The position numbers were made by a program, and so were the translations under genes. A stretch of DNA of 64,000 bases. Origin: Chara braunii. Lineage: Eukaryota; Plantae; Charophyceae. Under the pieces are notes generated by a model. It had not been told where the DNA came from. It did no database searches and saw only the letters and a list, made by a program, of their open reading frames with translations. The first letter of the stretch is position 1; the number at the start of each line of letters is the position of its first letter. Shown one piece after another: positions 5,063-47,272 of the stretch. The stretch is taken from the NCBI GenBank assembly GCA_003427395.1, contig BFEA01000030.1, positions 2,223,722 to 2,287,721 of the forward strand, given 5' to 3'.

Positions 5063-5069
5063 ATTGCAG

Positions 5070-18749: not shown

Positions 18750-22656
<3,907 letters not shown>

Positions 22657-22675
22657 ACCTGCCCACACCCCATTT
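22657..22675 (-). other. Polypurine tract
   Basis: Minus strand AAATGGGGTGTGGGCAGGT immediately precedes the 3' LTR. Confidence 0.7.
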
Positions 22676-22966: not shown

Positions 22967-25900
22967 TCATTTGTCTAAATGGTCGGTATCCCCGTCATCT
23001 TCCCTTGGCCGTTTCCTCCTTCTAGGGGTCTTCGGCAGGGGAGGTTTCCGAACCTTGTACCCCCTCTTTGGAGACCGAGAAGAGGCTCCCTGCCTCGAAA
23101 TCTCTCCCTTCTCGTCGGTGGCAGTCACTTCCGCGTCGGTCGCCTCCTTGCCCTTCCTTTTTGACTCCTCTCTAAGGCTTTCTCTGCATCGAAAAAGTTT
23201 GAGGCGGGCCCCCGCGATAGGGTCTTGTAACCTAGTCCCGTCCAATTCGGCAAGGAGGTACGCCCCCCTATCCAATCTCTTTTGGACTCGGTACGGCCCC
23301 ATCCACCTGTTGGGTAGCTTCCTGCTCCAAGTTTTCTCCAGCGACGAGTCGTACATTAGGACAAGATCGCTAGTCCCTATTGCCGTTTGACGGACCCGCA
23401 AATTCTTGTCCCACCTTTCCTTCCCTTTTATCCTCTCCTTCTCAATGTTCTTTCCTGCCTCGGCAAGCCTGACGTCCAGGTTCTCAACTATTTGTTGTAT
23501 CCTCGCCTCCAATAATTCCCCCCTTGTCATGTTAATCTTCCATGAGACACTCGTCCAAGTGTCGACGTGGAACTCGATGGGCAAGGGGCAATGTCTACCG
23601 AACCAAAGGGTGTAAGGAGGATAACCCGTACTCGATTTAACCGTGATGTTATCCGCCCAAACTGCATAACGCAAATACTTTGGTCATTGTTCCGCACGTC
23701 CTTTGCACCATTTCGCCAAGGCGTCTACAAGGGTTTGGTGACCTCTTTCGATCGGAGCGTTGCTTTGGGGGTGATAGGCGGTTGTGTAGGCCGCCTTAAT
23801 CCCTGCCTTCTCCAATATCACCTTGACCCTTTGACTTAGGAATTTCGTCTCCCTACCCATAACTATCTTTCCGACGCAACCGTACCGGGCAATGTACTCC
23901 AAGAAAAAGTCACTCATCTCCTCGGCCGTCTTCTTCTTAATAGCTATAACCTCCACGAATCCGGTGAGGACATTGCGGGCATTGATTACGTACCGAAGCC
24001 TGCCGACTCCTTTAGGCATGGTTACTAGGTCAACATGGACCTTTTCGCCGGGCACAGTGGGGAGCGACGGAACAAGGGGTTCCTTGTAGCGAACTGTCGC
24101 CCTCTTTTGCCACACCTCATAGGTCGCACAATACTTCTCTATTTCTCCGTACTGCCCATCCCACCAATAGAGTCTGCGGACCTTATCAAAAGTCCCTTTT
24201 ATCCCCCTATGTCCTCCGACGACTCCGTCGTGCAGCTCTTCTATGACCGCTCTCCTTTCCTCCGGATCGCAAAGCACCCTCATGGGAATTGCAAACTTGG
24301 TTGGTCTCTTAAAGAGGTGCCCTCCTGTTAGGCAGTACCCGAGCGCTTCTTTCTTAATCACCTTGGTACCTTCCCCCCGGCCTACTAGGTATAGTCCTAT
24401 GTCGAGGTACTTCCCGTCGTAGAGGTTAGCGAGGAACGTCCCAGGGCTCCCACCTTCCTCTCGGTTGGTCACCCCCACTTGCGCTTTGTTAGCAACCACT
24501 TGGATCACCTCCTCCTCGGGCATTGCTGCCCTTGCTTCCTCCATCCTCGGATAATCCTCCTCTCTGATCGGGAGTCGGGACAGTTCGTCGGTGACCTGAT
24601 TTTTGGCCCGGAGATCCTCTCGACCCTATAATCGTAGAGTCCAATATGGATCATCCATCTAGCGATGGTCGGGTCGATAAGCGAGAAGTCCTTTTGAAGG
24701 ACAAGCGCTACCGCGGTCGGGTCCACTCTCAGGAGGAAACGTCTCCCGTCGATGTAGTGACGGAAGGTTTTTAGGCAATGTAACACCTAATAAGGACTTC
24801 TCGCTTATCGACCCGACCATCGCTTTTTGAATTGGCTATAATTCCTCTCGGCGGGATTCAAGGCCCGACTCTCAAATCGGAGGGGCCTCTCCTTCCCGTT
24901 TGGATCCTTATGCGACAAATGTCCTCCTAATAAGGTCCCGCGTCCGTCGAAACTATAAAGGGGCGGTTCTCCTCGTCCTCGAAGAAAGGAACCCCTAAGA
25001 CTTGTCCACCTTCGCGGAATTCCTCCTTAAGGGCTTCCATGGCCGCGGCCTGCTCCTCTCCCCAGATCTATTCCTCAACTTTCCTAAGCAACCGCCTAAG
25101 GGGTTCTGCCTTCTTACTGTAGGTCATTATAAAGATTCTCCAGTAGCCCATCACCCCTAGAAATTGTCTAGCCTCCGTGATTGACTTAAGTGGCGACGAC
25201 CAGGTCGTCAACTTTTCTGAGCTAGCGGGATCAGGTTCGGCCATCCTTGTCACTGATGAAGCCCAATATTTTGATCGCCGACACTCCCCAGCGGCTCTTT
25301 GTCCCGCTCACAGTAAGGTTGGCGTCTTCTAATTTTGCAAGGACTTCCCCGACATCCTTCATATGGTCCACCACGAACTTTCTCACTCCGGGTAAGACCT
25401 CCATCTCGTCCCGTTCGACCGACCCTTTTATCGAGAAGTCGTCTAGGAAGATATCCACCTTTTCAGGTATGAACTCTTTGAGGACCGCGATCATGGCTCT
25501 TTGAAATACTGCGACGCCGTTCGTCCACCCCATCGGTACCACCATTATTTGGACGAGCCCTAGAGGCGGTCAGGTGTCTATCTCGGTAGTCCAAGGGGAT
25601 CTCATCATAGCCCGAGAAGAGATCGCAGATCGAGTAGATCGAGCGACCTGCCGACCCTTCCGCAAGGTGATCAGCCTCAGGTATGGACCCCACGACCCTT
25701 ATAGTGACCGCGTTGGTCCTTTGGAGGTTTTGAATCCACCTCAATTTATTGCTACCTCCTTTTCTCAAAAAGAACCATTTGTTGGAGTAGGCACTTTCAC
25801 AAGGTTCGGCGACGAATGTCCTTATCTTTTCTTTGATGAAGACCACTATCTCCTCCTTCTCCTTTTGAGCATACTTCCACTGGGATCTATCTTTCCAAGG

Positions 25901-26864
25901 TACTCGAGGTATCGTATGGATTTGGGCGGGCTTAGCGTACCTCGGGTTGTCTCCGAGTCATCGAAGGCTATGACCTTATCGCAGCCCCTTAGGGTCATCG
26001 CTACGTACTCCTTCTCTTCCCCCATGAGGTTCCCATCTCCTATATCCATTTTTGCCAACCTATTGGCCGTAATTCTTTGTCCCTCGGTCTCTTTCCTTTT
26101 TCGGATGATATTGACGATTTCCTCCTCCGATATCGAAGTTTCCTCCGTTCTATCCCAACTGACTGCAACGGGTTTCACTTTCTCAACCACGGTTTTATGT
26201 TTCTTGACTTCGCCGACTAGGGGGATTCCTCCAGAAAAGACAGCCTTACGTATCCACCGAACTCCTCTTCCTCGTCCTCTTTCTCGTATCCTACCCGATT
26301 GATCACAACCCGGCCCCCGACATCCTCGACATGTATTTGGTTCCCCGAGGGTCCCTTATCAGCTAAGGGTGACTCTTCTAGACGAACTGGGCACACCCTT
26401 GACTGGGCTTCCTTCCACCTTGGAATACTGGTCCGGTTCCGCTCATCTTGAGCGTCCACAGTTTTTAGGACCACTCGGATCCCATCCAGACTCTGGATCG
26501 AGAGGGTCTGACTCCGGTCCGGAAGGTCAACCGTGGTTGTGTGGACTGCGCTCAGCCAAGTTTTCCCTAGGATCAATTCGGAGGAACACTCCCTTACCAA
26601 GAATATCGGGACCGTGGCTTCGACGTCGGCGACCTCGATCATGGGGTTATGACACACCCCCTCGGCCGGCTGCAGCTTGTTATCCGCAACTACCATCGAC
26701 ATGGACACCCCTCTATCTACTTCTAAACCTAACTCCCTGGCAATGGAGTCTCTACACACCGTGGATTCGGACCCGTTATCCACCAGAGCCCTCATCTTCT
26801 TTCCACTCATCACTGCTTGGAGTTGGCCGCTCCCTAATACATAGAACCTTTTGATCTTCTCTCC
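22967..26864 (-). pseudogene. pol: pol (aspartic protease, RT, RNase H, integrase) with stops and frameshifts
   Basis: ALVDNGSE (PR); ICDLFSGY, PMGWTNG, IFLDDF (RT); FIVSTDAG (RNase H); H..GGHRG, VHVDL, PQSNAPIER and WMGPY (IN, GPY/F); basic tail, no chromodomain. Confidence 0.95.
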
Positions 26865-29226
26865 TCAGAAGAATTTCGTCGGCAGTTCCTCCATAGTGAT
26901 CCGGGAGGACTGCACTTCTTCTTTGGCTGGTCCATCCCCAGGAACCGTGGGCCCCCCTGAGAGCGGGATTCGCACTTTCCTTGTGATGCTTAGGAGCTCA
27001 TCTCTAGCGCTCTTGCTGGCCGCTAAGTACTCCAGAAGGGTGCATTGCATATGTTGCATCAGGGTCCTCCATAGAGGAGCTACCGTGTCTATTTCGTCCA
27101 AGGTGCATTTCATCTCGAACTTTTTCGCCCCCTTTTTCCTAGGCGACTTAGGTGAAGTGGGTTCCTCCCCCTTCCTCTCTTCCGTGCCTTTGGCGTCGAC
27201 CATCGGTTGGTCATCGTCGCTGCTCCTTCTTCCTCCACCCTCCGTCGCGCTTTCCTTGCCTTTAGACGGCGTGACCCCAACTTGAGTCCTTACCCTTAGG
27301 CAAGGCCCTTCCTCTTCGGGCTGGGTCTCAATGAACTTGATGCTCGACAGCTGGGGCTCCCTTATGGACACGCCTCCCTGTGGTTCTGTCATTTGGACCT
27401 GGGACGAGTTAGAAGTGCTCCCACCCTCGGGCTTCTTCCCCAATCTTGCTTCTTGGAAGGCTACTCATTGAGGGATTGAAGGAGACTGCTTCCCCATCAT
27501 CCCCCCAAACTACCCACTTATTCTCTTTTAATTTTACCACCCCCAACCTTAGGGCTTCCGTAAGGTAAGGGCACTCTCGTTTGATGTGACCCTCCTCATT
27601 GCAATAGACCCACCCGCTTCGAGGCGGCGGGTTGTTAGGGCGGGGAGCGACTTGATGGGGCGCTCCCGTTGCCGGGAGGCCCGGGAGGCGGTGGCATTCT
27701 AGCCTGACTTACCTCTGGTCGAACCCCCATGGCCCTAGCTTGGGGAGGGTCTCCCCATCTTCCATCCCTTGCGTCCTTCCATCGGGAGTTTCCCCATTTC
27801 GAGGCCCTATTTCCTCCGGTCTCTCGGTCGTTCCTCCAGCTCCATTAGTTGCCGGGCGTGTTTCACCAACCTGGGGGTCTTCATCCCCAGCGTTGGGCGG
27901 AAGGCCCAGGAGGCCGCCTTTCGTTTCCGTGTGGACCGTCCCCCTTTTGGGAGCGCATACTCCGGAGAGCCATGTCCAGACTCTCTTTCATGTACTCCTG
28001 TACGTCCACACCTCCTCTAGTGAAGACCACTTCGGCGACTCTTTCGAAATTAGCGGAGTCCCTAGGGGCCTTTTCGAGGACCTCCCTCCTCTTCTCTTCA
28101 GGCAGGTGCAACATGAACAATGCGCACATGTCGACTTCCGAAAGCATCCCTCTATCCACCAAGGCCTGCGATAAACGTTTGAAGCTTCGAGTAAAGGCCA
28201 CCAGGCTTTGTTGCTCTCCTCTCGCTACCCGACGCAACCCTTCTATCGTGGGGATCATGTCGTCACACACAAAGATCCTCAACAGGCTGCTCTTGAAAGT
28301 CTTCCACCTCCCATCAGACAGGTATACGACCCTAATGGCCTGGTCCAGCTCGGGGTCCGAATGTTGTATGAAGTGGTCGATCCACTCTTTCTCCGAAAAC
28401 TTCTTCCGGTAGGCGTAATGCTCCCATTTCTCCACGAACCCGGTCACGTCCCTTCCGTTAAAATAGAGCGACTCTAGCCCCAGGTTCACATCGTAGTAAG
28501 GGACTCGACAGTCGTTATACCGACGGAAATAAGGTTCTTCTGCCGGCCCATCTATCGTTGGATCGTAAGGCTTGTACCAAGAAGGGTCCAAATCTTCCAT
28601 CCGGGGTCGAGGTCTCAGAGGTCCCCATTATTCCTCTTCCCGACGACCTCTATAACCTGGGTCTTCACGTTTCCAGTGCATGGACTCCGGGCCCCAAGCC
28701 CCTCTTCAGATGTCTCCCATATTCCTTCCTACCGCCTCTTCTTGCATCCATGCGGGACCAGTTTCCCTGCCGGCCCATCTTCGCGTTACTCCCCCAATTT
28801 CGATTTGTCGTCCTTCCCCAAGTTCCCTCCTTCTTAGGCGACCTTCCTCGCCTCTCCTCGGCCCCCAGCATCCAGCCCTGTCACGGGGGCACTCCTGCCC
28901 TTCGTCGACTCTTTCTTCCGTGTCCACGTGGTTCGCCCATTGGGTTTCGACTGGGAAACCCCTTGTGTTCAGACCCTTTCTCTCACAGGCACACGTGGTT
29001 CTATCTCTCGGTGCAAATGCTCGTCAGAGTTCGTATGCGGCTCCGTAACTTTTTCTCCGAGGGGTTCTTCCAGGTTCCTTAAGGCCGTACCCGTAGATTC
29101 TACCCCTTCAGTCACTCCTTCGACTGTCTTGCTCAATCTTGCCCCCAATTCGGTACCCTCCTCGGTTCGCCACATAGCAGCGGGCGTAAGTGATTGGGCG
29201 ACCCCGTGCTCAACCACACTTTCCAT
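26865..29226 (-). pseudogene. gag: gag, degenerate; in frame with pol across the TGA at 26865-67
   Basis: YFNGRDVTGFVEKWE capsid-like block in ORF 27881-28600; degenerate zinc knuckle WVYCNEEGHIKREC near 27570-27615; probable start ATG at 29226. Confidence 0.75.
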
Positions 29227-29236
29227 GCACCAGTTC

Positions 29237-30091
29237 TTAGTCGCTCTCTTCGCCAGAATCACTCCCTCGGCCTTTTGTCCCGCTACTCTCCTTCGAGCCT
29301 CCTTCTCCTTCACTCGATCCTTGTGCCTCACTGTCTCCTTCGGACTCCTCACTAGTCACAGTCCACCAAAAGTCTCGTATTTGTTTCTCTTCGTAAGCTG
29401 CTAGCGCAAGGTTGACAATTTCCAGATCCGAGACACCCCTAGTCCCTTCCTGCGAGCACCGTCTAATTAGGCCTCTATCTACTTCTCCGGCCTATCCCGA
29501 GAATAGGGGCTTGATGAAATCGCCAACCAGAGCCCACCAGTCAAAATTCGTATGCTCTAGGGACTCCCATCACAGGGTGAACAACTCGTGCCCCTTCTCT
29601 TCCCTCAGGGGAAATTTCTCAATTATCGGTCCTTTAATTTGGATTTTCCTCACCGCTGCGTCGTTGGGGTAAAGCAAACGGTAGACCCAAGCAGGGACTT
29701 CCCAGGTCCGGCCGTGGGCTGCCCGCGGAATTTCTAACCGTCCTCGGTACTCGACCTTCTCTATTTCACGCCTTCCCACGATTCCCCCTCTCAGCCTTCT
29801 AAGTCGGTCTCAAGTTCTCTCTACGATACCCAGCGGATCCTTTCCTTCCGCTAACTCGGTGGCAAAGAACTGTCTATCATCGTGAGACAAGAAGATCTCC
29901 GCCCTTCGCATGTGGGTACCCTCTCTCGAAACTATCGAGAAACGAACTAGCGTTTCCTGCCCATATTCGAAGAACTCCGTAATAATCTCCCCTTCTTCCT
30001 CATCCTCGGGGAGGGTCACTCCATACCTAGATCCCGACTTCCAAGCCCTTTCCAAGGTCCCGACAGGGTTCCCCCTGTCGAATCTAATCAT
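29237..30091 (-). pseudogene. Accessory ORF B5 (~284 codons, three in-frame stops), family B
   Basis: Read-through translation aligns with B4 (GKDPL..DRLRRL vs GEDPL..DRLERL; VPAWV..YP vs VPRFI..YP; acidic tail); ATGA overlap at start. Confidence 0.7.
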
Positions 30092-30660
30092 TGGCCGGCT
30101 CACCTTACCCGAGCTATTCTCTCCGCCGCCTCGACCAGTGAATCCTCGCACCTCTCTCGAGAGCCCTCGCCTTGATCGAGTATCGTCCGACGCAAGGCTT
30201 GCTCGTACTCCCTCGTCCTGACCCAGAAACACGCCTCCACCAGGTGCACCCTGACTTCGAGTGGGTTTCCAAGCCACCTAGAGTCCTCCTCAAACCTTCG
30301 CTCGACCTCCGACAAAGGTTCCCTCCATGTTCTAGAGAACCGTTCTCCTCTCGCCTCCCTAATAAAGATTGAAAACCTAGCTAAGGTGGTCCACGACCTC
30401 CTTTTCCACAAGGTCAGTCGCCGAACTTCGACGAGGAAACTCTTCTCGGCTCGAGCCACTCGTTCTTCTCCAAGGCCTGGCCCAAGATCCGCTCCTCCTT
30501 CTACCTCGACCTCGGGGCCGTCGTCCCTTGTCTCCAACTCCCAAATTATCGAGTTTGAGGTGTAGGTAGCTCTCATGCCTTTCCTCCCCCGAAGAATAGT
30601 TCCTCTTTTAAATCGTAAAGTATCTTTATCGTGACCCTCTCTAATAACTTGATCTTTCAT
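30088..30660 (-). CDS. Accessory ORF C (MKDQVIREG..., 186 aa), possibly a distant family B member
   Basis: Long open frame; ATGA at 30657-60; a second in-frame TGA at 30088-90 overlaps the B5 ATG. Confidence 0.6.
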
Positions 30661-30768
30661 AAGGACCCTGGTCTCGCCCTCCTTTCCTCTTCCCAGCAAA
30701 GGGTCAAAATTCTATATAGCTCCACCTTAACCCTTTCTAGACCCACCAGTTCGCTGGTGTCGGGCTCA

Positions 30769-31508
30769 CTAATGCCTCAAGTTCCTTCGACGACACGCTA
30801 TAGCTATTCGTATGAGATCCGAGGGGTCTAATCCTTCTAACCCCGCCTCACAGATCTTTCCCAAGTACCTCCAGGTGATGGTCGACACCTTCACGTGTTG
30901 GCCCCAGCCCTCAAAGGCGTAGCCCAGACCCTCTAGCGACGACCAATTGTCCTCGTATGGACTTTGAAGGCACCACGTTAATAGGGAATGCAGGTCCGAC
31001 CTTGTGAACCGAAATTGGTTCAGGATCGAGATCCTACGTTCCACCGCCTTCCTGACCGTTTCCGAGGGATAAACTCGCTCAAGTATGAAACGAGGGACTC
31101 CGACGGGGTCACTGTTGAAAAACAGAGGCACTTCTTCCCAACCCATGTAGGTCACTCGGTTGATCCTAGGGTACTCCTCTCGAGGACTTGCCTCTTCCAC
31201 AAGCCTCTCCAGACGGTCTTGAATCGCCTGTGCGTCTATGAGCGGGTCCTCCCCCAACTTCAAGCTGCGGACTACCTCTAGAAAACTCTCCTAAGGAACA
31301 ATGTGGCCTCTTCGATCACCAACCCCTCCCCGCTGCTCACTGTCAACCGAACGAATGCTTTCCCTCGGCGGATCTCGGCTACTTCCCCTCGAATGACCCT
31401 CGTCGGATGTCTTTGACTTTCCTTGGGCAACGAGACATGGACAACCTCTCCTTCCCCACTCACAGGCTCTATCGAGGCCCAAAGAGTTCCGGGGATTCCC
31501 CTTATCAT
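30769..31508 (-). pseudogene. Accessory ORF B4 (frameshift near 31278)
   Basis: ATLFL..LKLG and EEYPR..VPRFI..LHSLLTWC motifs; its ATG overlaps the B3 TGA. Confidence 0.7.
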
Positions 31509-32233
31509 CGAGCTTCGAACCCCCATTGGTTAGCCACCTGCTCTTCCCCAAAGAAGCGGGCATACGGGACGTCAACGACGTGAACTCGGATCCCCTCAAA
31601 CTCTCTCAACCTCTCGAATATAGGGGGTTGTTCTCCCCTAGGGGGAACCCCAGCGTCCACACACTGCGTGTAGAGCCAGAATAGCCCTCTTGTCCGCACT
31701 CCGGACTCATGAGCAGCTCTGAGTACCGCCACTACTTTCTTTTTTCGGGTCTTTAAGAATGAGCGTGTCAGGAATTGGGGCAGGTCCACATGGAGCACTC
31801 CGGACGCCCGAGGGACCTCACCTGGTTCGGCGAAGGATACCTGTGTCCACGATTCGAAGGTTCCCTCCTCGTAATCACCCAGTACCAGATTGTTCGCTAC
31901 TAGCCTAGCGGACTCACGGTACTCCGTATGGGTCTCTCGCCCAGTCACTAAGCCCCTCCAAATCTCGGTCCATGTCTCCTCGTCGAGGAAAATTGTAGCC
32001 TGAATCTCTAGGAACCGACCGAGGTCAGGCGTACCTCCTCTTTGCACCCCTTCTTTCCAGGTAAGCCTGTGAGTTCGAACCCACACGTAGGCGCCTTCCC
32101 TGACGGCCCCTCCTTTCTCAACACTCATCCAGTAGGGCGTCACTCGAGGGTCCCCTAGGATGAAGACTTTCCCCGCGTCACCGGCTTCTATCGCCTCTAC
32201 CACTCCGTTTTTGCTGAGCACAAATCTCACCAT
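31505..32233 (-). CDS. Accessory ORF B3, intact 242 aa, unknown function
   Basis: Intact ORF; paralogous over its full length to B1 (MVR.V..K.G.V; ATIFL..W; EVPR; LFWLYTQCVD). Confidence 0.8.
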   Translation of the reverse strand: MVRFVLSKNGVVEAIEAGDAGKVFILGDPRVTPYWMSVEKGGAVREGAYVWVRTHRLTWKEGVQRGGTPDLGRFLEIQATIFLDEETWTEIWRGLVTGRETHTEYRESARLVANNLVLGDYEEGTFESWTQVSFAEPGEVPRASGVLHVDLPQFLTRSFLKTRKKKVVAVLRAAHESGVRTRGLFWLYTQCVDAGVPPRGEQPPIFERLREFEGIRVHVVDVPYARFFGEEQVANQWGFEAR

Positions 32234-32789
32234 TGACAGGTGTCGTTTTGAAAACCCACTTGCGGTATCTCTCCGGCGAGAGGGTAAAGGGTTTTTCCAG
32301 GGACCCTAATCTCCTAAGAATACCCCAGAGTTTTCTTCGCGGCGGGATTCCCTGATCGATACAATGTGTGTATAGTATCCACAGGGCCCCAAAGGGTAAT
32401 CCTAAACTGCTTCCCCTTTCCAGGAGTTTCAGCACTCTTCCCTCGTTCACGCCTGAGAACACAAAGTCAGGGACCCACGTGGTCACGGGGTAACTCGCCC
32501 TTGGGAGTTCGCCCTCCCTAGCGAACCTCTCTGCCTTTATCGCCACAAACTTTCCGGATCCTATCTATCCATCTTCTTCTGACTGTTGTAGCCTCTCCGA
32601 TTAATAAGTCCAGCCCACCCCCTTGGCCCAAGACCAGGGGTACAATAACCTTCGACCAGGCCCCCGGCTTGACGAAGATTATCGAGGTGACTTCGAGATG
32701 CACCTCAGTCGTTCTCCTAAGCTACACACCCCTCGCTCGACTAGAGGGGACTCGACAAACCTACCGATGCTTCGGTCAAACAGAACCAT
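32178..32789 (-). pseudogene. Accessory ORF B2 (frameshifted)
   Basis: SIIFV..AW..PLVLG and GELPR..VPDFV..LWILYTHCIDQGIPP motifs found across frames. Confidence 0.65.
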
Positions 32790-32794
32790 TCATT

Positions 32795-33519
32795 CTAACC
32801 TACCTTTTGACGGACTCCGAATACGTTTTGGTAACGGTAGTCTCTCCCGCCCTCGCGGTCCCGCTCCGACTCTAGGGATATCCCTTCTGAGATCCGGTTG
32901 GCCCTAACCCCGTACGGCACCGGGTTGTCCACACAGTAGGTATAGAACCAATGAAGCGAACGAAAGGACAGCCCCCTCCTTCTCTCTCGCCTTATAGACC
33001 TCACGACTTTCTCGTATGCGGTCCCCAAGACGTAAGAAGGAAATATAGCCTGGATGCAACCCGCGACACGGGGGTATTCCTCGTCCCGAGTGCAAGTCAC
33101 TCGCAAGCGGAACGGCAGGCTATGCTGAAGGGGCACCTCCTCGAAGAACCGCCTCAGGAAAGGCCCTGCGCGTAACTCCTCGTGGTCCGTCCGATAGTAC
33201 CCTAATGCCAGTGGGTGACGTACTCAACCCACGCCTCCCGACTTAGATAGATCGTGCCCTCCACACGAACTGCCGCCCGCCGGGCCTTTCCCCCGTTCCT
33301 TGGTCTATTCCTGGTCCACTGATCTCCTTCCCAAATGCCTACGGCGAACCGTGCCCAAAGAAAAACTCCCTTCTCAAGTTCCACCCCTCTCTCATGCCCC
33401 GCTAGGTACCTCTTAGTACGATGATCCAAGGGGACACTAAAGCATTCTCGTTTCTTGAGAAGGTCAGCCTTCTCGATTTTTACTCTGCCGTCTTTTCCTG
33501 CTTCGACAATCCTAACCAT
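32795..33519 (-). pseudogene. Accessory ORF B1 (~241 aa, one frameshift near 33205)
   Basis: Joins ORFs 33202-33519 and 32795-33136; EEYPR..PSYV..LHWFYTYCVD motif. Confidence 0.7.
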
Positions 33520-33886
33520 GCCCCTCCTGGCTTTGCACTACCTTCTTAATGATTCCCACCAATACCTTCCACCCGTCCGACCCGTCGAGATAGGCCTCCG
33601 GTATGATCGGTGCGGGTCACTCTCCTCGTCGGAAGGTCCTATAACCTAGTGTATAGAAGTACCAGGTCTCGTAGGCCCCCAAAAGTTCCCTTTCTAGTTG
33701 CGCGACACCAACCGCCTCCTCCCAACTATTAAGAAAACCCTTTCCTTGATCCGTCCACTCTTCTACATAGAGGGAGATGTCCCAATCCCCGGTTCTCAAG
33801 AAGAACTTGTAACACCACCCGTCAATTCCCCCACAATCACCCACGCTAACGCCTGCCGGCTCAAATTCTAATACCCCTAGGCTCAT
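33512..33886 (-). pseudogene. Accessory ORF A3 (one internal TGA)
   Basis: MSLGVLEF..WCY.F.L.TGD.DI.LYVEE..YFYTLG..PEAYLDGSDGW; its stop overlaps the B1 ATG (ATGGTTAG). Confidence 0.75.
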
Positions 33887-34223
33887 AGGTTCTCCACTAT
33901 CTACTATGATCGCTACTAACACTCTTCACCCGTCCGACCCATCCAAGATATGCCTCTGGTATTACCGGGGAGGGTTGTTCCCCTCGTCGGAAAGTTCGAC
34001 ACCCCAGTGTATAAAAATATCTGATCCCGTAGCCCCCTAAAAGCTCCCTCTCTAGCCGAGCATGGCCAACCGCTCCTTCCCAACTATTTAGGAAGGCTTC
34101 CCCTTGGTCAGTCCCTTCTTCTACGTAAAGTGCTATATCGAAATCCCTGGTCCACAGGTAAAAGTTGTAGCACCATACCACGCTAATGCCCGCTGACTCA
34201 AACTCCAAAACCCCTAAGCTCAT
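33883..34223 (-). pseudogene. Accessory ORF A2 (small indels near the 3' end)
   Basis: Paralogue of A1/A3; CTATGAGC junctions at both ends. Confidence 0.75.
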
Positions 34224-34573
34224 AGGCGTTCCACTATCTCCTCGACGATTCCGACCAACACTCTCCACCCGTCTGACACGTCGAGATAAGCGTCCGGAAT
34301 CACCGGCGCAGGTCGGCCTCCCCTAGGATAAATCTTGTACCCTAGAGAGTAGAAGTATCTAAATCCGAACCCTCGCAACTCTGCTCTAGCCGCACGGGAG
34401 TTATCGATCACCGCCTCCCATCCGCAGAGGAAATTCTCCCCCTTGTCTCGCCCCTCTTCTACATAGATGGCGACGTCGAAGTCCCCCGTCCACATGCGGA
34501 AGGTATAGCACCACACGTCGACCCCACCGTAACTACTTACGCTAATCCCTTCCGGGACCGCTTCTAGGCTCAT
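34220..34573 (-). CDS. Accessory ORF A1, intact 117 aa, unknown function
   Basis: Intact ORF; its TGA overlaps the A2 ATG at 34220-23. Confidence 0.8.
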   Translation of the reverse strand: MSLEAVPEGISVSSYGGVDVWCYTFRMWTGDFDVAIYVEEGRDKGENFLCGWEAVIDNSRAARAELRGFGFRYFYSLGYKIYPRGGRPAPVIPDAYLDVSDGWRVLVGIVEEIVERL

Positions 34574-36221
34574 TCACCCTTATCAAAAATTTTCTTTTTG
34601 TCACCTTTACTAGTTGGCTACTCGAGAGACCACTCCTACCCTGCAAGAAGAAGGTGCCTGTGAGCCCAGCAGGATCAAATGGACCAGAGAAGGAACGCCG
34701 TCCCACTCGGCTACCTTCCTGTCCTCCCCCGCTGAGAGGTCCTCCCACGTCCTGGTATAAGGACTAGCCGCGAACACAGGTTATCCCCGAAGAAGGGTGG
34801 CAACCCCTCCTCCGGAGTCGGATCGTAGTCACACACCCGTGCCCTATGTCCCCCCCCGAACCGACCCCTAGTCCTAAGTTAGCCTATCCGGAACCACGCC
34901 CCTACTCGGCCCACCTCGAGCGTGGAATTACCCGGGTCCCAGGACTTTATCCGCCTATCGATCCGAGATCACTAGCCTGTCTACTCCCTCCCATTTTCCT
35001 TCTCGCATCGTGAACCCTTCTCACATCGTTCCCTTTTTCCCTTTTCGCCTCCGGCTGACTCTTTTCTCTCTCGGAATCAAGGAATTTAATCGGGGTATTC
35101 GAAGAAAAGGGGTGGGGAAGCAGAGTTTTAGGAAGAGTCTCTCAGGTTAAGCAGATATATATACGTACCTTGTGGTCCTTGAATTCTTCAAAATTCGTTT
35201 TCGTAGTCCCAATAATCCCCCAGGTCCGCGTCCGAGAAATCGGCAAGGCACCGGTCCACCCAAGACCCGTCCCCCGATCCCTCGTCCACGGCGCCCCACG
35301 TATCTCTCACCTCTTCTTCCCGAGGTAGCCCCCTATCCCCCCCGTTAATAATGGCGGTTAAGGTTTACTCGCCCCCTTGTCCCGGATCACGAAACACCAC
35401 TCTCCTCACCCCCAAGTCCCGAACGGCCCCCGCTTGAGAACTCCGCTCCCTCGCGGGAGGTGCCTCTCGAGCGGGCCCCGTCCACAACCCGCGAGGGGCG
35501 AGAACCGAAAACTCAAACCCCTCCCGCGAAACCCTTTCCGACGCGGAAGATATACCCCGCGCGGGTGCCGCCCACAACCCGTGTGGGTCGAGGATATTTG
35601 GCGACCCCCTTGGATCCCAAATTGATAACGCTCCCGGACCCTCTCGAACCCCCTTTTCCTCTCTTCCCCTCAAGTCCACTCTCTCTCCCCCGTGTGCGGA
35701 CCCTATCACACTATTTTCCCTTACGGCTCGTCTTACCCCCCTTTGGTTGTTTTTCACCCTCATTCAAACCCCCACAAACAAACTGTTTCGCCCTCTTAAT
35801 TAGTGGATTTTAGAAATAAACACACTAAAAATGTCACACTCCCCAGCAAAGACGGACCTGAATTGTCTTGGAGCAGCAAGGGCCACAAGCGGGGCCAAAG
35901 CGGACCTGCAAAACCGAGAGTTTCCGACACCCCAAGTCCCTTGCACCCAAACAAGCCCAGCACCCCCTTCTCACGCTGAAACAAGGCCCCCAATGGAACC
36001 CTCACCCCAAAACAACCCAATAGAACCCTCACCCCCAAAGTCGCCAAGAGAAAAAACGTTGTCGAAGAGTCGCCGCGTAGACCCGAAGAAAGTTGTAGCC
36101 GAAGAAAAAGAGGCGGAAAGGGAAATGCCGACTCCGATAGGCCCCTAAGAATTGATGCCGATGAGAAACTCGATGCCGAAAAAAAAAACCCCGAAGAACT
36201 TGATGCCGGAACTCAAAAAAA

Positions 36222-36231
36222 CTCTCCACCA
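36222..36231 (-). other. Primer-binding site, tRNA-Ala-like
   Basis: Minus strand LTR..CA-GG-TGGTGGAGAG; TGGTGGAGA is complementary to the ..UCUCCACCA 3' end typical of tRNA-Ala. Confidence 0.7.
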
Positions 36232-38229
36232 CCTGTCACGCCTGTTCTCCCTCACCCCGCAGTACTTGAGCCGGCCGAGGCCGTGGGAGAAAGCCCATCC
36301 CCGACAACGGCGCCACTTTGTTGGGCGGTGTCTTCCTCCACGTGCTACCGCCCCCCCCCCCCACTTCTTTTGCCCCTGCGCAGACCGACCCTGCTCCCCC
36401 TTAACTCTTCCCCCAACTGGCCTTCGAAGTCTCCCCTGCAACACAATCCTCATCGCCCGTTACCCGTTGCCTTTGCCCCCTTTTACGAGTTACTCTCCCG
36501 AGGCTGCAGCGGACCCCGATGGGGACTCGGACCCGACACCCATTAAACGACCCTCAACCGAGCATTAGACAGGGTGCGACTGTAGCGAGCCTCTGCCGTG
36601 GAACGGACCGGGTATTCGGTTCGGAGATGGGAAACACCCGAAGCGAACCGCAACTGAAAACTAGGTCGGGTGCTCTGCTCGGAACAAGGGGAGTCTGCAA
36701 CGAACATTCAACGGAAAAAACAGACCTGACTCTCAGTTTGGTATTAAGCAGCGAGCTGTCAACAGGAACACACGCCGGATACTCAATTTTGAATGGCAAA
36801 CGTTTGCAGCGAATTATCGAAGAGGAAACAGATCAAGTGTCGGAAGACGTCCGCGGCGAAAGAAAAACTCCCAGCTAACTCTCACAGGAAAACAAACGGA
36901 CCCGGTGCCCGGTTTGGAACGAGAAGCTTTTACAGCGACCTCATCCGACCGCAACGAAAACCCCTTGCCAGTTACCCCTGGAAAACAAACAGACCGTGTA
37001 CTCGGTTGAACTGAAAGCAGACCAGGAGCCGAGCTCCAAAGGGGAAAGAATTTTGACCGGGAAAACGGTCTTGGTGCTGTCGGTGCGAATACCCTTACAA
37101 GGGTATCCGCCCTGTTTTTTGCAAAAGACAGGAAATAAGTTTGGCTTAAAGTTTAAGTATACCGCGCGAGGTGCGTCTGCGTCTGTGATTTACGTTGACC
37201 GGATGGGTGACTAGAGTAGAGAGTGTGTGGGCGCGCGGATTTGAGGCGCTTGTGATCCTTTTATTTGTTGATGATTGAAGAGTCGCCGTGATCGCCGACT
37301 GAAATTCTTTATTTCTGATTAAGTAGGGACTAAAAAGATTATGTCTCGTTGATTGGTGTGCTTGCCTATGACCTATGCGTACACGCGGAGGACGGCATCG
37401 ACAACAGTGTGGCTTATGAAGTCGTTTTGGGAGATCGGCGCGTCGTGCAGTGCCTGTTTATTTAAACGTCCGTCAGAGTAAACCCAGACTTGGGCCTAGC
37501 ACTATTGGTTACGATGCCGAACTTTCGTCGGGGAGGTTCAGGATCAAGGACGAGCGGCGACAACGCGGAATGTCGGAGTGGCGCGAAAGGGCCGAGGGGT
37601 TGAGGGTCTGGCGGGGCTATCCCCCTTGGTTTTGTTGTCGGTGGCGTGAAGGCGGGGCTATCCTTATTGGTTTTGTCGTCGGCAGTGTCCGACTGGTGGT
37701 GGCGTTTTCTAAATTTTTTATTTAGTGTTGTATTTTTATTTAGTTTCCTGGGCACTCCGTCGCGCCACTGACTTGGACGCGACGCCGGGCTTAATGGTCG
37801 TCACGGCAGCCGGGGGCCTTGAGTACGTGGCCCATCCGACGGGTTGGCGGGTCCCGGTTGCTGGCGAGAATCAGCCACCTCGCCGCAGCAAGGGGGGCTA
37901 CGGCGCGGTCACAGTTTGAGTTGCAGTAGCACGTAAGGCCGAAGGGCCGGTAATGCTGAATGTATATGACCTACGTGTCGGGTCAGGCGAGGTCGCGTCG
38001 GGATGTGTTGTATTCACGGGATTGCCAGAAGTGCAATTACAAACTGTTTTCATAACGGCATCGGGGTTACCCCTTTCGTAGTGTTACGGGGAACCCCGTA
38101 GCAGCCACACCTGGGCTCAGGCCTCCAATAAGGGAGCGTGTGGGAGTAGCGCCCACCAGTAGGTGCGATGCCTACCGTAGCAGGTGGGAGATATCAGTTG
38201 GGGGAGCCGCGGGGCATTGCCCCGGTCGA

Positions 38230-38322
38230 GTCCTTCGGGACATCCGTTAAAATGGGAACGCTGCCAAGAAGACTAGCACGGTCCCTTCGCAAGGGACGAC
38301 CTGTATAATAGGAGGACGGCCC
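38230..38322 (+). ncRNA. U6 snRNA-like sequence with altered ACAGAGA box inside the 7.7-kb element
   Basis: GTCCTTCGGGACATCCGTTAAAATGGGAACG-CTGCCA-AGAAGACTAGCACGGTCCCTTCGCAAGGGACGAC; about 12 differences over 71 nt from the recalled plant U6; also matches the copy at 1909-1993. Confidence 0.8.
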
Positions 38323-41300
38323 GGCGACCGAATGCTTTTTGCTCAGCATTCGGTAGCCCGTCGGGCTGCGCAGTTCGGGACGTCAACAACGGTCGGAGTA
38401 GACAAGCAGCGGGGAGAAGAGGTGGGTGAATCCGGGCGAGGAAGGGCGCCGGATGCAAGCGACGAAGAGTGGAGCGGGCTGGTGGTAAGGCCGACTGTGC
38501 GCAGCAAAGTAACAGGCAGCGGGAGAGCTGAGTGCCGGGGTAGCGGAGTGGCGACGAGCAATACGGGGTGGAAGCGACGTGCTGTGAGGGAAAGCGGGGC
38601 TGGATGAGCCTAGGCGGGGGACCGTGCCAGGTACATGGGAGATGAGTCAGGGAAGGCGGAGAGGCTGGTTGGGCATAGCCAGAGGTGGTAGTAGCGGACC
38701 GAAACTGGGCGGGCACTAAGATACTACGGGATAAGCGCAGCGGGCAACGAAGAAGGGCGACAGGTAAAAAAAAAAGGCGGATGAACCTGGCCGGGGTTTG
38801 GCGCGAGGTGCATTCGAAGTTTACAAAGATGGCGGAAGGAGAGTCGGACGCAGTCAGAGAGAAGGGGGTTCGTTCTATCCTTCGCGAAATCGAACGAGTG
38901 AAGGATGGTTATGGAGGTTCTGTGGGCCTGCGAGCGTGATTATGGAGTCAGATTTGGGAGAGAGGTGGATAAAACAGATGATTAGTGTGGAAAACGATGC
39001 GTGGAGGCTATGGCGGAGGGGAGAGTAGCGGGGTAGAAGAATGGAGTTACCACTCGATTCTTGATAGAATCGAGCGGGGAAAAGACTTAAAGTAAAGGTT
39101 TTAGGATCATGCGAATCTACTGGGAATGTCAGTTTTGGCTAAAGGTTAGTATGTAAGAAGTTAGTAAGAAGATCTGCTGCGCGGAGCAAGGGGAGTAGGC
39201 GTCGAGTCCACCCATCTCTTGACGAAAAAGAGTGAGAGGAGGCTTGCTATAGGGGCTTTGACAGGCAGCGAGTGCAATGGGGAACAGAGATAGTGGGATG
39301 GGTGAGGGAATCCTGTGTGGAGGAGAGCGGCAGTTGCGCCAGGAGGAGTTGGCTGAATTTCGACTGAGTAGGGAGTGAATCTGGCCGCCTTTGCAGGCAG
39401 GTTCACTCGACTACAGTACACCCCTTCAAGCAAAGTGGTGAACGAACAACCGCTGTAGGTGGGAGACTTACCTGCGGGACACCCCGCTCCAGCCTAGTGG
39501 CAAGGGTAGCAAGAAGAAAGTGCTTTGAGGGGCTAATGTACGTAGCCGGCATGTGGCGGAAGATTCGTTTGGTTTTGCTCGGGGTGGGCCGGTCTCACCG
39601 CACTTAAGGATGGATAGCGGTGCGGCCCTCCCACGCTAGAACGGCGGGCACATTCAACTCTTGCTCGTCTTGTCAAACCTCCCTATCCCCTTGCGTATGC
39701 AGCCGGTCCTAGCAGAAAAAGGCGGGGGAGGCGTGAGAGTTCAGAATGGCTGCGTATATTTTCGTGTTTTAGCCGAAGATTCAGTCTCATTTTGTACTTT
39801 TCTTTAGGAAGTCTTCTCGATCGCTCGCAGTCTCCGACGCCATCGTGGTTGATTATAACGCTGCAGTCCTTCCATCCGTCGTGCAATGCGTTCCCGGAGC
39901 AGTCGACTTTCTCAGCTAAGAAGCAAGGGACGACGTGAATCAGCGAAGGGAGAACCGGGTGGATTTGCTCGTCGTTTACTGCAAGCGGGTAGAGATGGGC
40001 ATTTACCTGCGAGTGGGTGGAAAGGAGCCGTAGGCTGCAAGTTTGTTCCGCCCATGGACCACTATCTGCAATAAGAAGCTGAGTGTGAGCCTGCCTGTCG
40101 GGCGTGCAAACAGATTGAGCTTTAGCAAAGAGAAAAAGTTGGGGCAACGCAGGGCACCTGTTTGAAAAAGGCATAAGGCCCGGCCGGAGACTGCTGAGTT
40201 AGACAGTCTGTTGAAGCGGACTGTTTGGAAGACTGCTGACCACGAGCCGAAGTCCGTAGGCTGTGGACTACGGGCCGCTGTGTTGCGTTGTTGCCGTCTG
40301 CTGGGTTATACCGTTGCATATCGCCGGTACTGGTGAAAGTGTATGGATTGTAGCTGCAGGTGATTGCTGATGATACTGTTAACCGCCGTCAAGTACTGTT
40401 GTTGCGGACTAGGGACGGACCGTTACTACCATTGCTGGCCACTGCTGTGTATTGATGATGCCCTTAGCCGTGTGCGAGCGTGATGGTGGAGGTTCCTGTA
40501 GTTGAGTCCGATTGGTGTCGCTGTTGCCCGGTGGTGCTTTGGATTGCTGTGGGCCGAGGCGCCTAGCTGCTGCATGTGGCACCCTGCGCACGCTGTTCTG
40601 GAAGGGTTACTGCGGTCATCATAAGGATATGATATTGTAAGAGTGAGGGAGAGGCTGGACTGCAAAAGGGACTATTGTGGCAATTTAGGAGTTCGTCGGA
40701 GGAGTCGAGCTCAACGGTTTGACTTTGGCTTGATCAAGCCCATACGACTTGGCTGCCATTGCAGGGCCCTCAGGCGTTGAAGATACCAAGGCCCTCTCCT
40801 GCGAGTCTGAGAGCACCCTCCTCGGATCTGAGAGTCTGAAATCTTTCTCCTCCTGCCTTTCTTACTCTAAGTCTGGTCTTTTGGTTCTGAGAGGAAGGCG
40901 GCAGGCGGGATTGCAACCCGTAGGTCCGCATCAAGACTCTGTGGGGAGTCAGCCCACTGATTGCGGGAGCCCTGCCGGAACTCAGGAGGAGTTTTGGAGG
41001 CAGGGAACTGAGAGGTAACCATTGCTTTCCTGCTAGAAACCCGAGTTATAGCCCCTATCTGTATTACCCATTGCATGTTTGACTGAGTATATGGTGTGAA
41101 GCCTTACCTTTATTTTTTGTTTGACTTTCAGGACGCTGAGCAAGATTAAGTAAAGAAATGTTTGTCCAATCTCAGTTTCAACTTTATTTGTTGTATGAAA
41201 TCAGATTGTTGAAAGGAATCGCATCTGGGGAAGGCAGGATGGAGGAATGTTTTGATTGAGGGTTTGACTGGGTCATCAAGGATGGGAAGTCCCCATAAGT

Positions 41301-42199
41301 TTAGGGAGACCCAGTGCTATGGTTTTGCGTGGAGGGTCAGGTTGTTCTATAAGTTTAGGTGGCCTTACTGCTCTGGCTTGCGAGGGCTGCTTGTGATTGA
41401 CTTTTTCAGGGGCCAAGTGCGTTCTGTAAGTTCAGGTGCCTTGGTTGTCTTGGTTATTTCGGGTTTTCTCCTGTTTATTTGGTTACGAACGAGGAGGCCT
41501 AAGTTGTTCTATAAGTTTAGGTGGCTTAGCCTCTTCCTGCCTTTATTTTGAGAGAATGAACCTGATAGTGGGAAGATTGTTATGTAAGTTCAGGTGATCT
41601 AGCCCAATGTCATGCACATATTGGATCAAAGATAAATGAATCAGGCAGAGAGTCAGACTATTCTGTAAGTTCAGGTGGTCTGACTCAAAGCCTCGCACAT
41701 GTTGGAACCTAATGGTTATAACTTGACTATACTTTACTATTATTTTATTTAAAAACGAGCTAATCAAACTGTTCTATAAGTTTAGGTGGTTTAACTATAG
41801 CCTATCACAACTTGAAGAGAGTATAATTAAGAATAAAATTAATGGTAAGTTGGGGCAGGCTGAACTTAAGTTGGTTCAGTCATATGCAACCTTAGAAGAC
41901 AAAGGGGAAGACATGTATATATAACTTGGATATCTTAAATAGTTCAGGGCGACTAGAATGGTGTAGTCATGTGCCCAAGGAAGAGAAAAATAGTTTTGCC
42001 CTCTGTTTTGTGTATACTCTTTGGCAAGTTCGACTCACTCCATAAGTTTGGGTGACCTGACCTTATGCCTTATGTAAGCAGGGTATAAGGGGTTAAGTTA
42101 CTCAAAGATTATGAACTATCGTCTGTCCAGATGAACCTCGGATGGTGAGAGTACTTACATCTGTGGTTTGGCCTGCATGTGGCCGAGTGAGGTTACTAC

Positions 42200-42482
42200 T
42201 TGGTCTGAGTTTCAGTTTGATAAGTAGTTGTTTTAGTTGCTCGCCATGTGCTAGAGCGATAGGAGTTAGTTTCAATTCCTGCATTTTCTGAGCTAAGTTT
42301 TTTTACTTAGATCAATTATCGTATTTTCTGGGATCGTTTTTTGGTCTGAGTTTCAGTTTGATAAGTAGTTGTTTTAGTTGCTCGCCATATGCTAGAGCGA
42401 TAGGAGTTAGTTTCAATTCCTGCATTTTCTGAGCTAAGTTTTTTTACTTAGATCAATTATCGTATTTTCTGCGATCGTTTTT
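42200..42482 (+). repeat. Near-perfect 141-bp tandem duplication
   Basis: ttggtctgagtttcagtttgataag... at 42200 and 42341. Confidence 0.92.
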
Positions 42483-42489
42483 TGTACTT

Positions 42490-43060
42490 GGCTTTGTATA
42501 AATCTTGACAAGCTATTTTCTCTACGGGAAGCGCTGCCGAAATTTCTACAAATCCAAGGAGTTAGTCAATTGTTGACTTGTCAAAGTTCAACTTGTCTTT
42601 TCTTTATATCTGACGTGGTAAAAATCTGGAAAGTCTCCTTTTCTAAAGGGAGCGCTGCCCAAATTTTTGTTAATTCAGGGAGTTAGACAAAATTGGATTT
42701 TGAGAAGTCAAAGTTATTCTCAAGTTCTGGACTTAGCTTTGTATAAATTTTGGAATAACACTTTTTTAAAAGGAGTGCTGCCGAAATTTCTGCAAAACTA
42801 AGGAGTTGGTTAAATCTTGTCTGAGTTGAACTCGAGTCGTCTTTTGAGTTCATATCCGACTTAGTATAAATCTGGGAAGTCTCTTTTTAAAAGGAGTGCT
42901 ACCCAAATTTGTACTAATTCAGGGAGTTAAACAAAATTTGACTTTCCAGAATTAAAGATTATTGGTGCTTTCATATTTGGACTTATATAAATTCTGAAAA
43001 TGCGCTTTTCCTATGGGAAGCGCTACCGAAATTTTCTTTGTTTAAAGGAGATGGATTATA
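42490..43060 (+). repeat. Diverged ~122-bp tandem repeat x5
   Basis: gtataaat..gga(a)g(c/t)gct(g/a)cc.aaattt..ggagtt at 42497, 42618, 42741, 42864 and 42985. Confidence 0.8.
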
Positions 43061-45574: not shown

Positions 45575-46450
45575 NNNNNNNNNNNNNNNNNNNNNNNNNN
45601 NNNNNNNNNNNNNNNNNNNNNNNNNNNNNNNNNNNNNNNNNNNNNNNNNNNNNNNNNNNNNNNNNNNNNNNNNNNNNNNNNNNNNNNNNNNNNNNNNNNN
45701 NNNNNNNNNNNNNNNNNNNNNNNNNNNNNNNNNNNNNNNNNNNNNNNNNNNNNNNNNNNNNNNNNNNNNNNNNNNNNNNNNNNNNNNNNNNNNNNNNNNN
45801 NNNNNNNNNNNNNNNNNNNNNNNNNNNNNNNNNNNNNNNNNNNNNNNNNNNNNNNNNNNNNNNNNNNNNNNNNNNNNNNNNNNNNNNNNNNNNNNNNNNN
45901 NNNNNNNNNNNNNNNNNNNNNNNNNNNNNNNNNNNNNNNNNNNNNNNNNNNNNNNNNNNNNNNNNNNNNNNNNNNNNNNNNNNNNNNNNNNNNNNNNNNN
46001 NNNNNNNNNNNNNNNNNNNNNNNNNNNNNNNNNNNNNNNNNNNNNNNNNNNNNNNNNNNNNNNNNNNNNNNNNNNNNNNNNNNNNNNNNNNNNNNNNNNN
46101 NNNNNNNNNNNNNNNNNNNNNNNNNNNNNNNNNNNNNNNNNNNNNNNNNNNNNNNNNNNNNNNNNNNNNNNNNNNNNNNNNNNNNNNNNNNNNNNNNNNN
46201 NNNNNNNNNNNNNNNNNNNNNNNNNNNNNNNNNNNNNNNNNNNNNNNNNNNNNNNNNNNNNNNNNNNNNNNNNNNNNNNNNNNNNNNNNNNNNNNNNNNN
46301 NNNNNNNNNNNNNNNNNNNNNNNNNNNNNNNNNNNNNNNNNNNNNNNNNNNNNNNNNNNNNNNNNNNNNNNNNNNNNNNNNNNNNNNNNNNNNNNNNNNN
46401 NNNNNNNNNNNNNNNNNNNNNNNNNNNNNNNNNNNNNNNNNNNNNNNNNN
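45575..46450. other. Assembly gap (N)
   Basis: N run. Confidence 1.
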
Positions 46451-46488
<38 letters not shown>

Positions 46489-46869
46489 GGCGGAGAGGAG
46501 GCGGTGAGTTTCCCTCTTCCTAAATTTCTTCTTCTTCTTCTTTTTTTCTTCGTTTTTTTTCTTTCTCTTCTTTGTTTTCATCCTTCTACTTTTTTCTTTT
46601 CCTTCTTGTACTTCTTCCTTTTTTTCTTGTTCTTCGTAAGTTCTGGATCTTCTTCTTCTTCTTCTTTTTCTTTCATCCTTTTTTTTGTCATGATTTTAAA
46701 CTTTCTTTCTTCTTCTTCTTATTAATAATATTGCTATTAACATCATCTTCTTCTTCTTCTTCTTATTTCTTCTTTTTCTTCTTCTTCTTCTTATTTTTTG
46801 TCGTGATTCTTCTTCTTCTTCTTCCTATTTCTTCTTCTTCTTCTTCATCATCTTGGTTTTCTTCTGTTG

Positions 46870-46965
<96 letters not shown>

Positions 46966-47272
46966 CTAAGACGAAGACGATGGCGATGGCGACGGCGACG
47001 TTTCCGACGACGACGCTGACGGCGTGACAGAGGACGGCGGCGCGACGGTGCGCAGTGTTTGATGGCGCACACGTATGGCCCGTCCATACGCACGCGCCCG
47101 TACGTACGACCCGTACGCCTATACGTGCCGGTGAACGGGCCGTGCGCGGCGCAGAGGTTGTCGCTGTTCTGGCCCTGCTGGGCGGTGGGGGGAGGAGACC
47201 GGGCCTGGGGACGGACATCGGCGCTGTGCTGCGTACTCTGCTTCGAGGTCTGTGGGCGCAAGGCTGCCTGCA

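Follow-up and report, generated by a model that had tools for sequence, protein, structure and literature searches.

A 64,000-nt stretch of Chara braunii DNA (contig BFEA01000030.1, positions 2,223,722 to 2,287,721 of the forward strand; hereafter the window) carries on its minus strand a large Ty3/gypsy long terminal repeat (LTR) retrotransposon in which the 5.3 kb ahead of gag are tiled by co-oriented open reading frames (ORFs), designated A1-A3, B1-B3, B4, D, C, and B5. Several of these ORFs are under purifying selection, and together they are almost free of internal methionine codons. We infer, with slightly better than even confidence, that leaky scanning on a single long RNA allows this cassette of about ten ORFs to be translated along with gag, and that reinitiation at the gene junctions is a probable helper. 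The fuller picture of a ten-gene operon on a single capped RNA, in which weak starts, AUG clearance, and stop/start coupling jointly feed three orphan protein families and Gag-Pol, is given an even chance of being correct.

The Accessory ORF Array

The original prediction placed nine co-oriented ORFs upstream of gag, and their positions and strand are as it claimed; the array is real (Table 1). Measured against chance, ATG-initiated ORFs of at least 70 aa number 10 (1.6 ± 1.2 in shuffles) and stop/start pairs within 10 nt number 3 (0.01 in shuffles), values that none of 1000 dinucleotide shuffles reached; the ATGA word itself is not enriched in the array (13 vs 18 in shuffles). In the present copy A1, B3, and C alone are unbroken, the other seven of the ten ORFs being interrupted. 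When each break is represented by an X, paralogy defines three groups, A1-A3, B1-B3, and B4-B5, with C matching none; the B4-B5 pair is detected at E 1e-10, and a link between B1 and B4 is weak (E 0.003, with 2 of 200 shuffles equally good). The idea of a single fused accessory polyprotein was rejected: each A and B gene is a distinct paralog with a start of its own, and in a public contig of 1261 nt (L001) the frames of B2 and B3 differ.

Table 1. Features of the element in window coordinates; all lie on the minus strand.
Feature	Position	Strand	Description	Further observation
A1	34220..34573	-	117 aa, intact; weak start context	P0013: same start, 84% identity over 64 aa
A2	33883..34223	-	A1 paralog; tail interrupted by a stop and two frame breaks near 33945-33900	ATGA with A1 and A3
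A3	33512..33886	-	A1 paralog; one internal stop, 33619-17	8-nt overlap with B1
B1	32795..33519	-	~240 codons, one frame break near 33205	sole start in strong context
B2	32178..32789	-	two frame breaks; relatives longer by ~40 codons; overlap with start of B3	
B3	31505..32233	-	242 aa, intact; ATGA with B4	
B4	30766..31508	-	~245 codons, one frame break near 31290; B5 paralog	
D	30573..30776	-	~66 codons, without ATG, one stop (30659-57) in present copy	probable tenth ORF
C	30100..30576	-	158 aa from ATG 30576	64% identity over 149 aa to P0011
B5	29237..30091	-	284 codons, three internal stops; acidic tail; gag ATG 10 nt on	
gag-pol	22967..29226	-	gag (weak Retrotrans_gag, zf-CCHC), protease, reverse transcriptase (RT), RNase H, integrase, SH3-like tail	Pfam
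Leader	34574..36330	-	1757 nt, 5 ATG (observed/expected 0.35)	primer-binding site (PBS)-like TGGCGCC word at 36315
3' LTR	18758..22658	-	~3.9 kb	polypurine tract precedes
5' LTR	36354..55928	-	three pieces: 36354-37068, 44797-45394, 53439-55928	split by two later insertions

Stop/start overlaps of the ATGA type hold at four of the ten junctions, and every junction except B2/B3 lies within 10 nt. The overlaps at 34223-20 (A1/A2) and 31508-05 (B3/B4), each following an intact ORF, stand as first described, as do the 8-nt overlap of A3 with B1 (33519-12), the 5-nt gap between B1 and B2, and the 10-nt gap between B5 and gag. The A2/A3 overlap (33886-83) had been proposed on the repair of a single upstream lesion; the resemblance of this overlap to the A1/A2 junction speaks for it, but the paralogs reveal two frame breaks and a stop rather than one lesion. 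These two junctions are alike though synonymous differences between the genes come close to saturation (proportion of synonymous differences, pS, 0.73-0.92). Two other proposed overlaps did not survive comparison with further copies. The ATG of the supposed B4/C overlap (30660-57) is not common to most copies and the overlap is peculiar to the present one, because most contigs and six or seven of seven RNA reads differ at two of its letters (30659, 367/400 and 465/539 of contig depth and 7/7 RNA reads; 30660, 264/400 and 407/539 of contig depth and 6/7 RNA reads). At C/B5, where ATGA had been placed at 30088-91, the C stop at 30102-00 is probably shared and leaves an 8-nt gap, since no difference falls at 30088-30102 among the best 40 of 58 differing places in copies over 30060-30810. 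Two features that the earlier reading lacked are an ATGA overlap at 30576-73, where D ends on the next ATG of C (30576), and an overlap of B2 with B3 that spans 56 nt here and about 23 nt in L001. An in-frame ATG at 31526, 18 nt ahead of the ATGA start of B4, could lengthen the B3/B4 overlap.

D itself is probably a tenth ORF of about 66 codons, with an expected start at 30771 and a sole stop at 30659. By codon position, its variant places number 0/2/6 in the first part and 2/3/0 in the second; it is regarded as probable rather than shown because the second-part variants do not favour the frame and 4 of 7 RNA reads carry an 8-nt gap. An assignment of 30766-30657 as a tail of B4 was rejected.

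Selection on the Accessory ORFs

The expectation that dN/dS (the ratio of nonsynonymous to synonymous substitution rates) would lie below 1 was borne out, the values being far below 1 wherever they could be measured (A1-A3, B2, and B3). In a DNA-level alignment, the differences between A2 and A3 comprise 12 at first, 11 at second, and 41 at third positions, and pN/pS (the corresponding ratio of proportions) is 0.16 (0.09-0.24) for A2/A3, 0.27 for A1/A2, and 0.46 and 0.34 for two pieces of A1/A3. L001 covers the terminal part of B2, whose frame stays open over 198 codons, together with a B3 that has one stop; against this contig, dN/dS is 0.10 for the B2 tail (76 codons, range 0.06-0.27 in the 713 of 1000 bootstraps that were unsaturated) and likewise 0.10 for B3 (226 codons, range 0.06-0.16 in 953 of 1000 bootstraps). 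Third positions make up 14 of 25 variant places in C (p 0.016). Purifying selection is thus shown by sequence comparison for A1-A3, B2, and B3 and, more weakly, for C. The pN/pS values of distant B pairs (0.56-0.71) were set aside because protein-guided alignment biases them. Gene order is also kept in the gene model P0011, which runs through B2, C, the B5 tail, gag, and protease as in the window.

Other Copies of the Family and Decay of the Present One

Further copies were viewed through tables of contigs and reads, gene models, and one contig. From a DNA run, which may be the window's own source and in which contig depth is not a copy number, 4213 contigs aligned to the stretch, most of them 80-95% alike, and the family therefore has many copies; the best 40 of 739 differing places were considered. 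At most of the checkable breaks other copies differ from the present one. Its stop codons at 29570, 29812, and 30771 differ elsewhere in 1041/1092, 488/494, and 1159/1176 of contig depth, respectively, the first two being two of the three internal stops of B5. Gaps occur in contigs at the frame breaks of A2 (at 33945, in 26/52 of depth), B2, and gag, and 9 contigs diverge from the window at 33208, the site of the B1 break. The breaks lying outside these places are the A3 stop, the other two of A2, the first of B2, that of B4, and the third of B5. The 29 best-supported differences that were classified, from the 40, are divided 13/10/6 by codon position, as expected if they represent decay of the present copy. 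Several contigs skip or replace one A unit between 33895 and 34257 (joints 33895-34233 and 33902-34257); A-gene number may vary among copies, or these joints may be cross-matches between paralogs.

AUG Avoidance, Start Contexts, and Leader

Internal methionine occupies 4 of 1752 accessory codons, compared with 45 of 2035 in gag-pol (p 8e-9). It is the sole residue so depleted (ratio 0.10; the next is 0.52). The same deficit recurs in relatives: P0011 has 1 in 399 accessory codons and 19 in 704 of its gag-protease part, P0013 has 0 in 63 and 13 in 493, and P0009 and L001 have 0 in 183 and 1 in 426. Observed/expected ATG is 0.62 on the sense strand of the array and 1.40 on the antisense strand, with 0.35 in the leader and 1.15 in gag-pol. 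An effect of base composition was rejected because the antisense strand and isoleucine codons, whose frequency is unchanged, are unaffected. The avoidance of AUG extends through B5 up to the gag ATG. Out-of-frame ATGs are about halved, and most of them open frames of fewer than 35 codons; some of the stray ATGs are products of decay, as that at 30660 shows. The start contexts of ten ORFs comprise 5 weak, 4 moderate, and 1 strong (B1), accessory ATGs being weak or moderate in 8 of 9 cases, and a pyrimidine stands at -3 in 8 of 10 starts (p 0.017).

In the leader, a donor-like site at 35170 and an acceptor-like site at 34641 bound 530 nt and end 68 nt before A1; splicing between them would drop three of the five leader ATGs. 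Folding of the 3' part of the leader, where these sites lie, is stronger than in shuffles (z -2.84, none of 20 as good), with z 0.58 for the 5' part; RTBV-type leaky scanning would call for a short uORF with a stem-loop shunt in this leader. The leader also holds a 132-codon ATG ORF (35365-35763, minus strand) that has no Pfam match and would hinder scanning if shared. Between 34612 and 35000, contig depth reaches 5466 and 3785 against an array mean of 778 (about five to seven times), with RNA reads on both strands; this part may be shared by more elements, perhaps non-autonomous ones, or hold a conserved cis signal.

RNA From the Family

Three RNA runs (X5, X6, and X7) were aligned, 6-13% of each being read. 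X6 yielded 303 reads over 29 of 30 array bins, X5 two reads, and X7 one. Only 1 of the 303 reads is 99% alike to the window, and the X6 RNA therefore stems from other copies. Eighty percent of the X6 depth over the array has the first mate on the plus strand, which corresponds to sense RNA if the library is of the usual stranded type; some carry-over of DNA is possible because strandedness is unrecorded and RNA depth follows DNA depth. No splice joint or end cluster appears in the 303 reads over the array, a weak negative at such depth.

Translation of the Array and Competing Explanations

Under leaky scanning, small ribosomal subunits would enter at the cap and traverse the AUG-poor leader, a share of them would initiate at each weak or moderate AUG, and the remainder would scan on. 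In-frame internal AUGs would have been eliminated, since each would hold subunits in a long frame; out-of-frame AUGs would mostly open short frames that allow rescanning, and ribosomes finishing one gene could restart at the next. The loss of methionine and the weak starts fit this scheme better than calicivirus-type reinitiation alone, since leaky scanning predicts in-frame clearance with short out-of-frame ORFs tolerated and serial reinitiation alone predicts neither. From the earlier proposal of a virus-like polycistronic set expressed by termination-reinitiation, the packed set, its selection, and RNA across the array are retained, and reinitiation as the mechanism is not.

Several observations weigh against co-translation by leaky scanning, and the main doubt concerns the supply of ribosomes for Gag. 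A toy model with assumed capture rates, in which stray ATGs are ignored, passes 1-10% to gag, and the 5.3 kb to be crossed is six times the distance in rice tungro bacilliform virus (RTBV), for which leaky scanning across two ORFs and 900 nt has been shown, according to the available text of PMC5902531. The start of B1 is in a strong context, as are 7 of 27 non-start ATGs, and the ORF pieces contain 23 out-of-frame ATGs, a count that includes neighbouring starts (4.3 vs 7.6 per kb, p 0.03). The starts of A2 and A3 are not independent, and the case for B1, B4, and B5 as selected genes comes from paralogy and open frames. Among other copies, a 1-nt insertion in B5 is present in 118/278 of contig depth, L001 carries a stop within the B3 frame and lacks an ATG where B3 starts in the window, and there is the 8-nt gap in D noted above. 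RNA across the array came from one of three runs, its depth correlates with that of DNA (rho 0.47), and splicing could go unnoticed in 303 short reads.

In the chief rival explanation the cassette is scanned but Gag-Pol is made from an RNA that is spliced or begins internally, or else, in certain subfamilies, as a B5-Gag fusion. This is judged unlikely. In its favour, ten upstream genes would leave little for the most needed protein, and the leader has its donor-like site at 35170. The acceptor-like sites (n = 5) include none below 31112 and hence none near gag, and the avoidance of AUG continues through B5 to a gag ATG 10 nt past the B5 stop; both points speak against a separate Gag-Pol route. 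As for fusion, B5 and the main gag frame are in the same frame in the window, and in P0011 the B5 tail continues into gag-like sequence, with no stop where B5 of the window has one; the joints of P0011 are nevertheless not evidence, because this predicted spliced model also joins B2 to C. Spliced or subgenomic RNAs for each gene or small group, with the packing a matter of economy, seem quite improbable. In their favour are the donor-like site at 35170 and acceptor-like sites at 34641, 33763, and 31112, and so thin an RNA sample weighs little against them; but on this strand, rich in purines, most starts have no pyrimidine tract, AUG avoidance is not required of monocistronic RNAs, and the 303 reads contain no joints.

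Serial termination-reinitiation alone, in which each gene is made by ribosomes finishing the preceding one, is judged rather improbable. It would account for ATGA at four junctions and gaps or overlaps of 5-10 nt at five more, and for an A junction that persisted through duplication. It gives no reason for a ten-fold loss of internal methionine, has to accommodate a B2/B3 overlap of 23-56 nt, and would deliver 1e-7 to gag after ten steps at an assumed 20% each; a viral-type activator among the ORFs could rescue it, and none was identified. TGGGA is the motif of TURBS type (TURBS, termination upstream ribosome-binding site). It is not enriched before starts, occurring within 120 nt of only 2 of the 10 earlier-listed ones, neither of them at a valid ATGA junction. 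Hardly credible, finally, is an array that is a relic or captured sequence without a role in the element. Seven of ten ORFs are broken, the 13/10/6 split is a neutral-decay pattern, and no homolog is found outside the lineage, but gag-pol is equally broken in this same old copy, P0011 keeps the order B2-C-B5-gag, and a relic is contradicted for A, B2, and B3 by dN/dS of 0.10 against L001 and pN/pS of 0.16-0.46 among the A genes.

Protein Relatives and Possible Function

A B-family profile searched among 1.84 billion representatives gave four matches, three of them real relatives (two being Chara braunii models) and one a repeat-rich chance match; the A profile found a single longer protein, which is a Chara model. 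The protein search with B3 gave no match of comparable length, ESM Atlas returned nothing for B3, and Foldseek gave no match for it at E 0.001. No Pfam family was assigned to 14 pieces of the accessory region, a kinase match of one D piece (E 0.088) being rejected as chance, and no relative of A1 occurred in the viral contigs searched. ESM Atlas placed A1 near bacterial clusters at 0.93, with recognition below threshold, which is a weak lead only. AlphaFold models were poor (predicted local distance difference test, pLDDT, 48 and 42), and a PC4/PUR-like fold was unsupported (VIA-align best Z 5.9 for A1). The best 19-residue hydropathy is 0.70-1.53 in 8 of 10 ORFs (A2 and D unscored), highest in B2, and reveals no clear membrane segment, which sets these ORFs apart from MDG1 sORF2 and FAST-like fusogens, small proteins with a membrane helix. 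As a guess, the products may be soluble alpha/beta host-facing helpers in counter-silencing or RNA handling, because duplicated, fast-diverging accessory genes often act so.

A gag N-terminal motif occurs twice in P0011 (residues 400-545) and once in the window (29237-28900). P0011 is without the window's first gag segment, and gag starts may differ between subfamilies.

Structure and Classification of the Host Element

The element measures about 21.5 kb once two later insertions (37069-44796 and 45395-53438), which split the 5' LTR, are subtracted on the basis of window self-comparison. It has the Ty3/gypsy domain order gag-protease-RT-RNase H-integrase, direct LTRs, a PBS-like word, and a purine tract; in the present copy gag-pol carries many stops and frame breaks, and the Pfam domains, in gypsy order, all lie on broken pieces. 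The PBS-like word may resemble the Athila type. The LTRs diverge by a Kimura two-parameter (K2P) distance of 0.057 over 3542 columns; their final ~25 nt are unlike each other, and no exact target-site duplication of 4-6 nt was resolved. The four best of eight integrase matches are Chara braunii gene models (54-80% identity). A single RT_RNaseH match, and no second, archaeal-type RNase H (aRH), was found across the pol pieces of this broken copy at E 0.1. According to the available text of PMC6317226, an additional aRH domain is the Tat/Ogre criterion, and by that criterion the element is not Tat/Ogre. Nor, from its domains, is it a chromovirus: no chromodomain was found after integrase, the tail giving a weak SH3_Tf2-1 match alone in Pfam. 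Pfam gave no match in the element to plant mobile domain, Transposase_28, or Athila ORF-1, a domain that some Athila elements carry. Elsewhere, the window contains tandem arrays of a ~122-nt unit (x5, 42480-43069) and a 17-nt unit (4901-5087).

Comparison With Known Systems

Extra accessory ORFs before gag are known, the comparison LTR elements carrying one or two in the available text of PMC6431247 and bioRxiv 10.1101/2025.03.14.642691; it is the scale of an array of about ten ORFs that is remarkable. Among the listings from full-text literature searches, neither a coupled multi-gene array ahead of gag nor the present family is described; the Chara genome paper and a 2011 extra-ORF survey cited in PMC7264820 may mention it.

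Among reverse-transcribing elements of the green lineage, RTBV and the badnaviruses, as they are presented in PMC5902531, share with the Chara element a succession of long ORFs that overlap slightly or stand a few nucleotides apart, start weakly, and contain few AUGs, ahead of a capsid/RT polyprotein. The present case differs from RTBV in its ten or so ORFs over 5.3 kb, its integrase-bearing LTR element, the incomplete clearance of AUG in the present copy, and a mechanism that we infer. Caliciviruses, with their TURBS, and non-LTR elements with termination-reinitiation likewise have AUGA stop/start overlaps, at one junction (PMC5902531), unlike the four ATGA junctions of ten seen here, where no TURBS-like TGGGA word recurs.

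sORF1 and sORF2 of the Drosophila MDG1 group are small co-oriented ORFs between LTR and gag that are under selection, and MDG1 RNA is described as unspliced and full-length (bioRxiv 10.1101/2025.03.14.642691). That group has two ORFs of 70-110 aa, one encoding a membrane protein, in contrast to about ten ORFs of 66-284 codons here, with duplicated groups and no clear membrane segment. Ogre, Tat, and Athila elements resemble the Chara element as large non-chromovirus gypsy elements with multi-kb LTRs and extra ORFs of unassigned role (PMC6317226; PMC7264820; PMC6431247). Ogre carries one or two such ORFs (PMC6431247), and the extra ORFs in this assemblage mostly follow pol in the portions available of PMC7264820 and PMC6317226; in the Chara element no second RNase H was found, nor any match to the plant mobile domain, Transposase_28, or Athila ORF-1. 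Much extra coding capacity is also a feature of Burro, a giant gypsy element of planarians, and of Terminons, giant Penelope-like elements of rotifers, but Burro has most of its extra domains in one polyprotein and Terminons are not LTR elements; the available text of PMC6431247 does not describe AUG-cleared coupled genes before gag for either.

A selected, AUG-cleared array of about ten ORFs would stretch the limits both on the number of extra ORFs and on the ORFs served per RNA. To our knowledge, it is rare for a single RNA to have more than two or three long ORFs translated by eukaryotic ribosomes. If the picture of a ten-gene operon on one RNA is correct, its scanning polycistron would far exceed in length those of plant viruses, some of which express two or three genes in this way, and would provide a natural design for expressing several genes together in plant cells. 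The junctions of the array would offer natural material for probing the reach of scanning and reinitiation in the green lineage. Several orphan protein families have been kept and duplicated by a successful multi-copy element, and the array would bridge gypsy elements and the polycistronic pararetroviruses.

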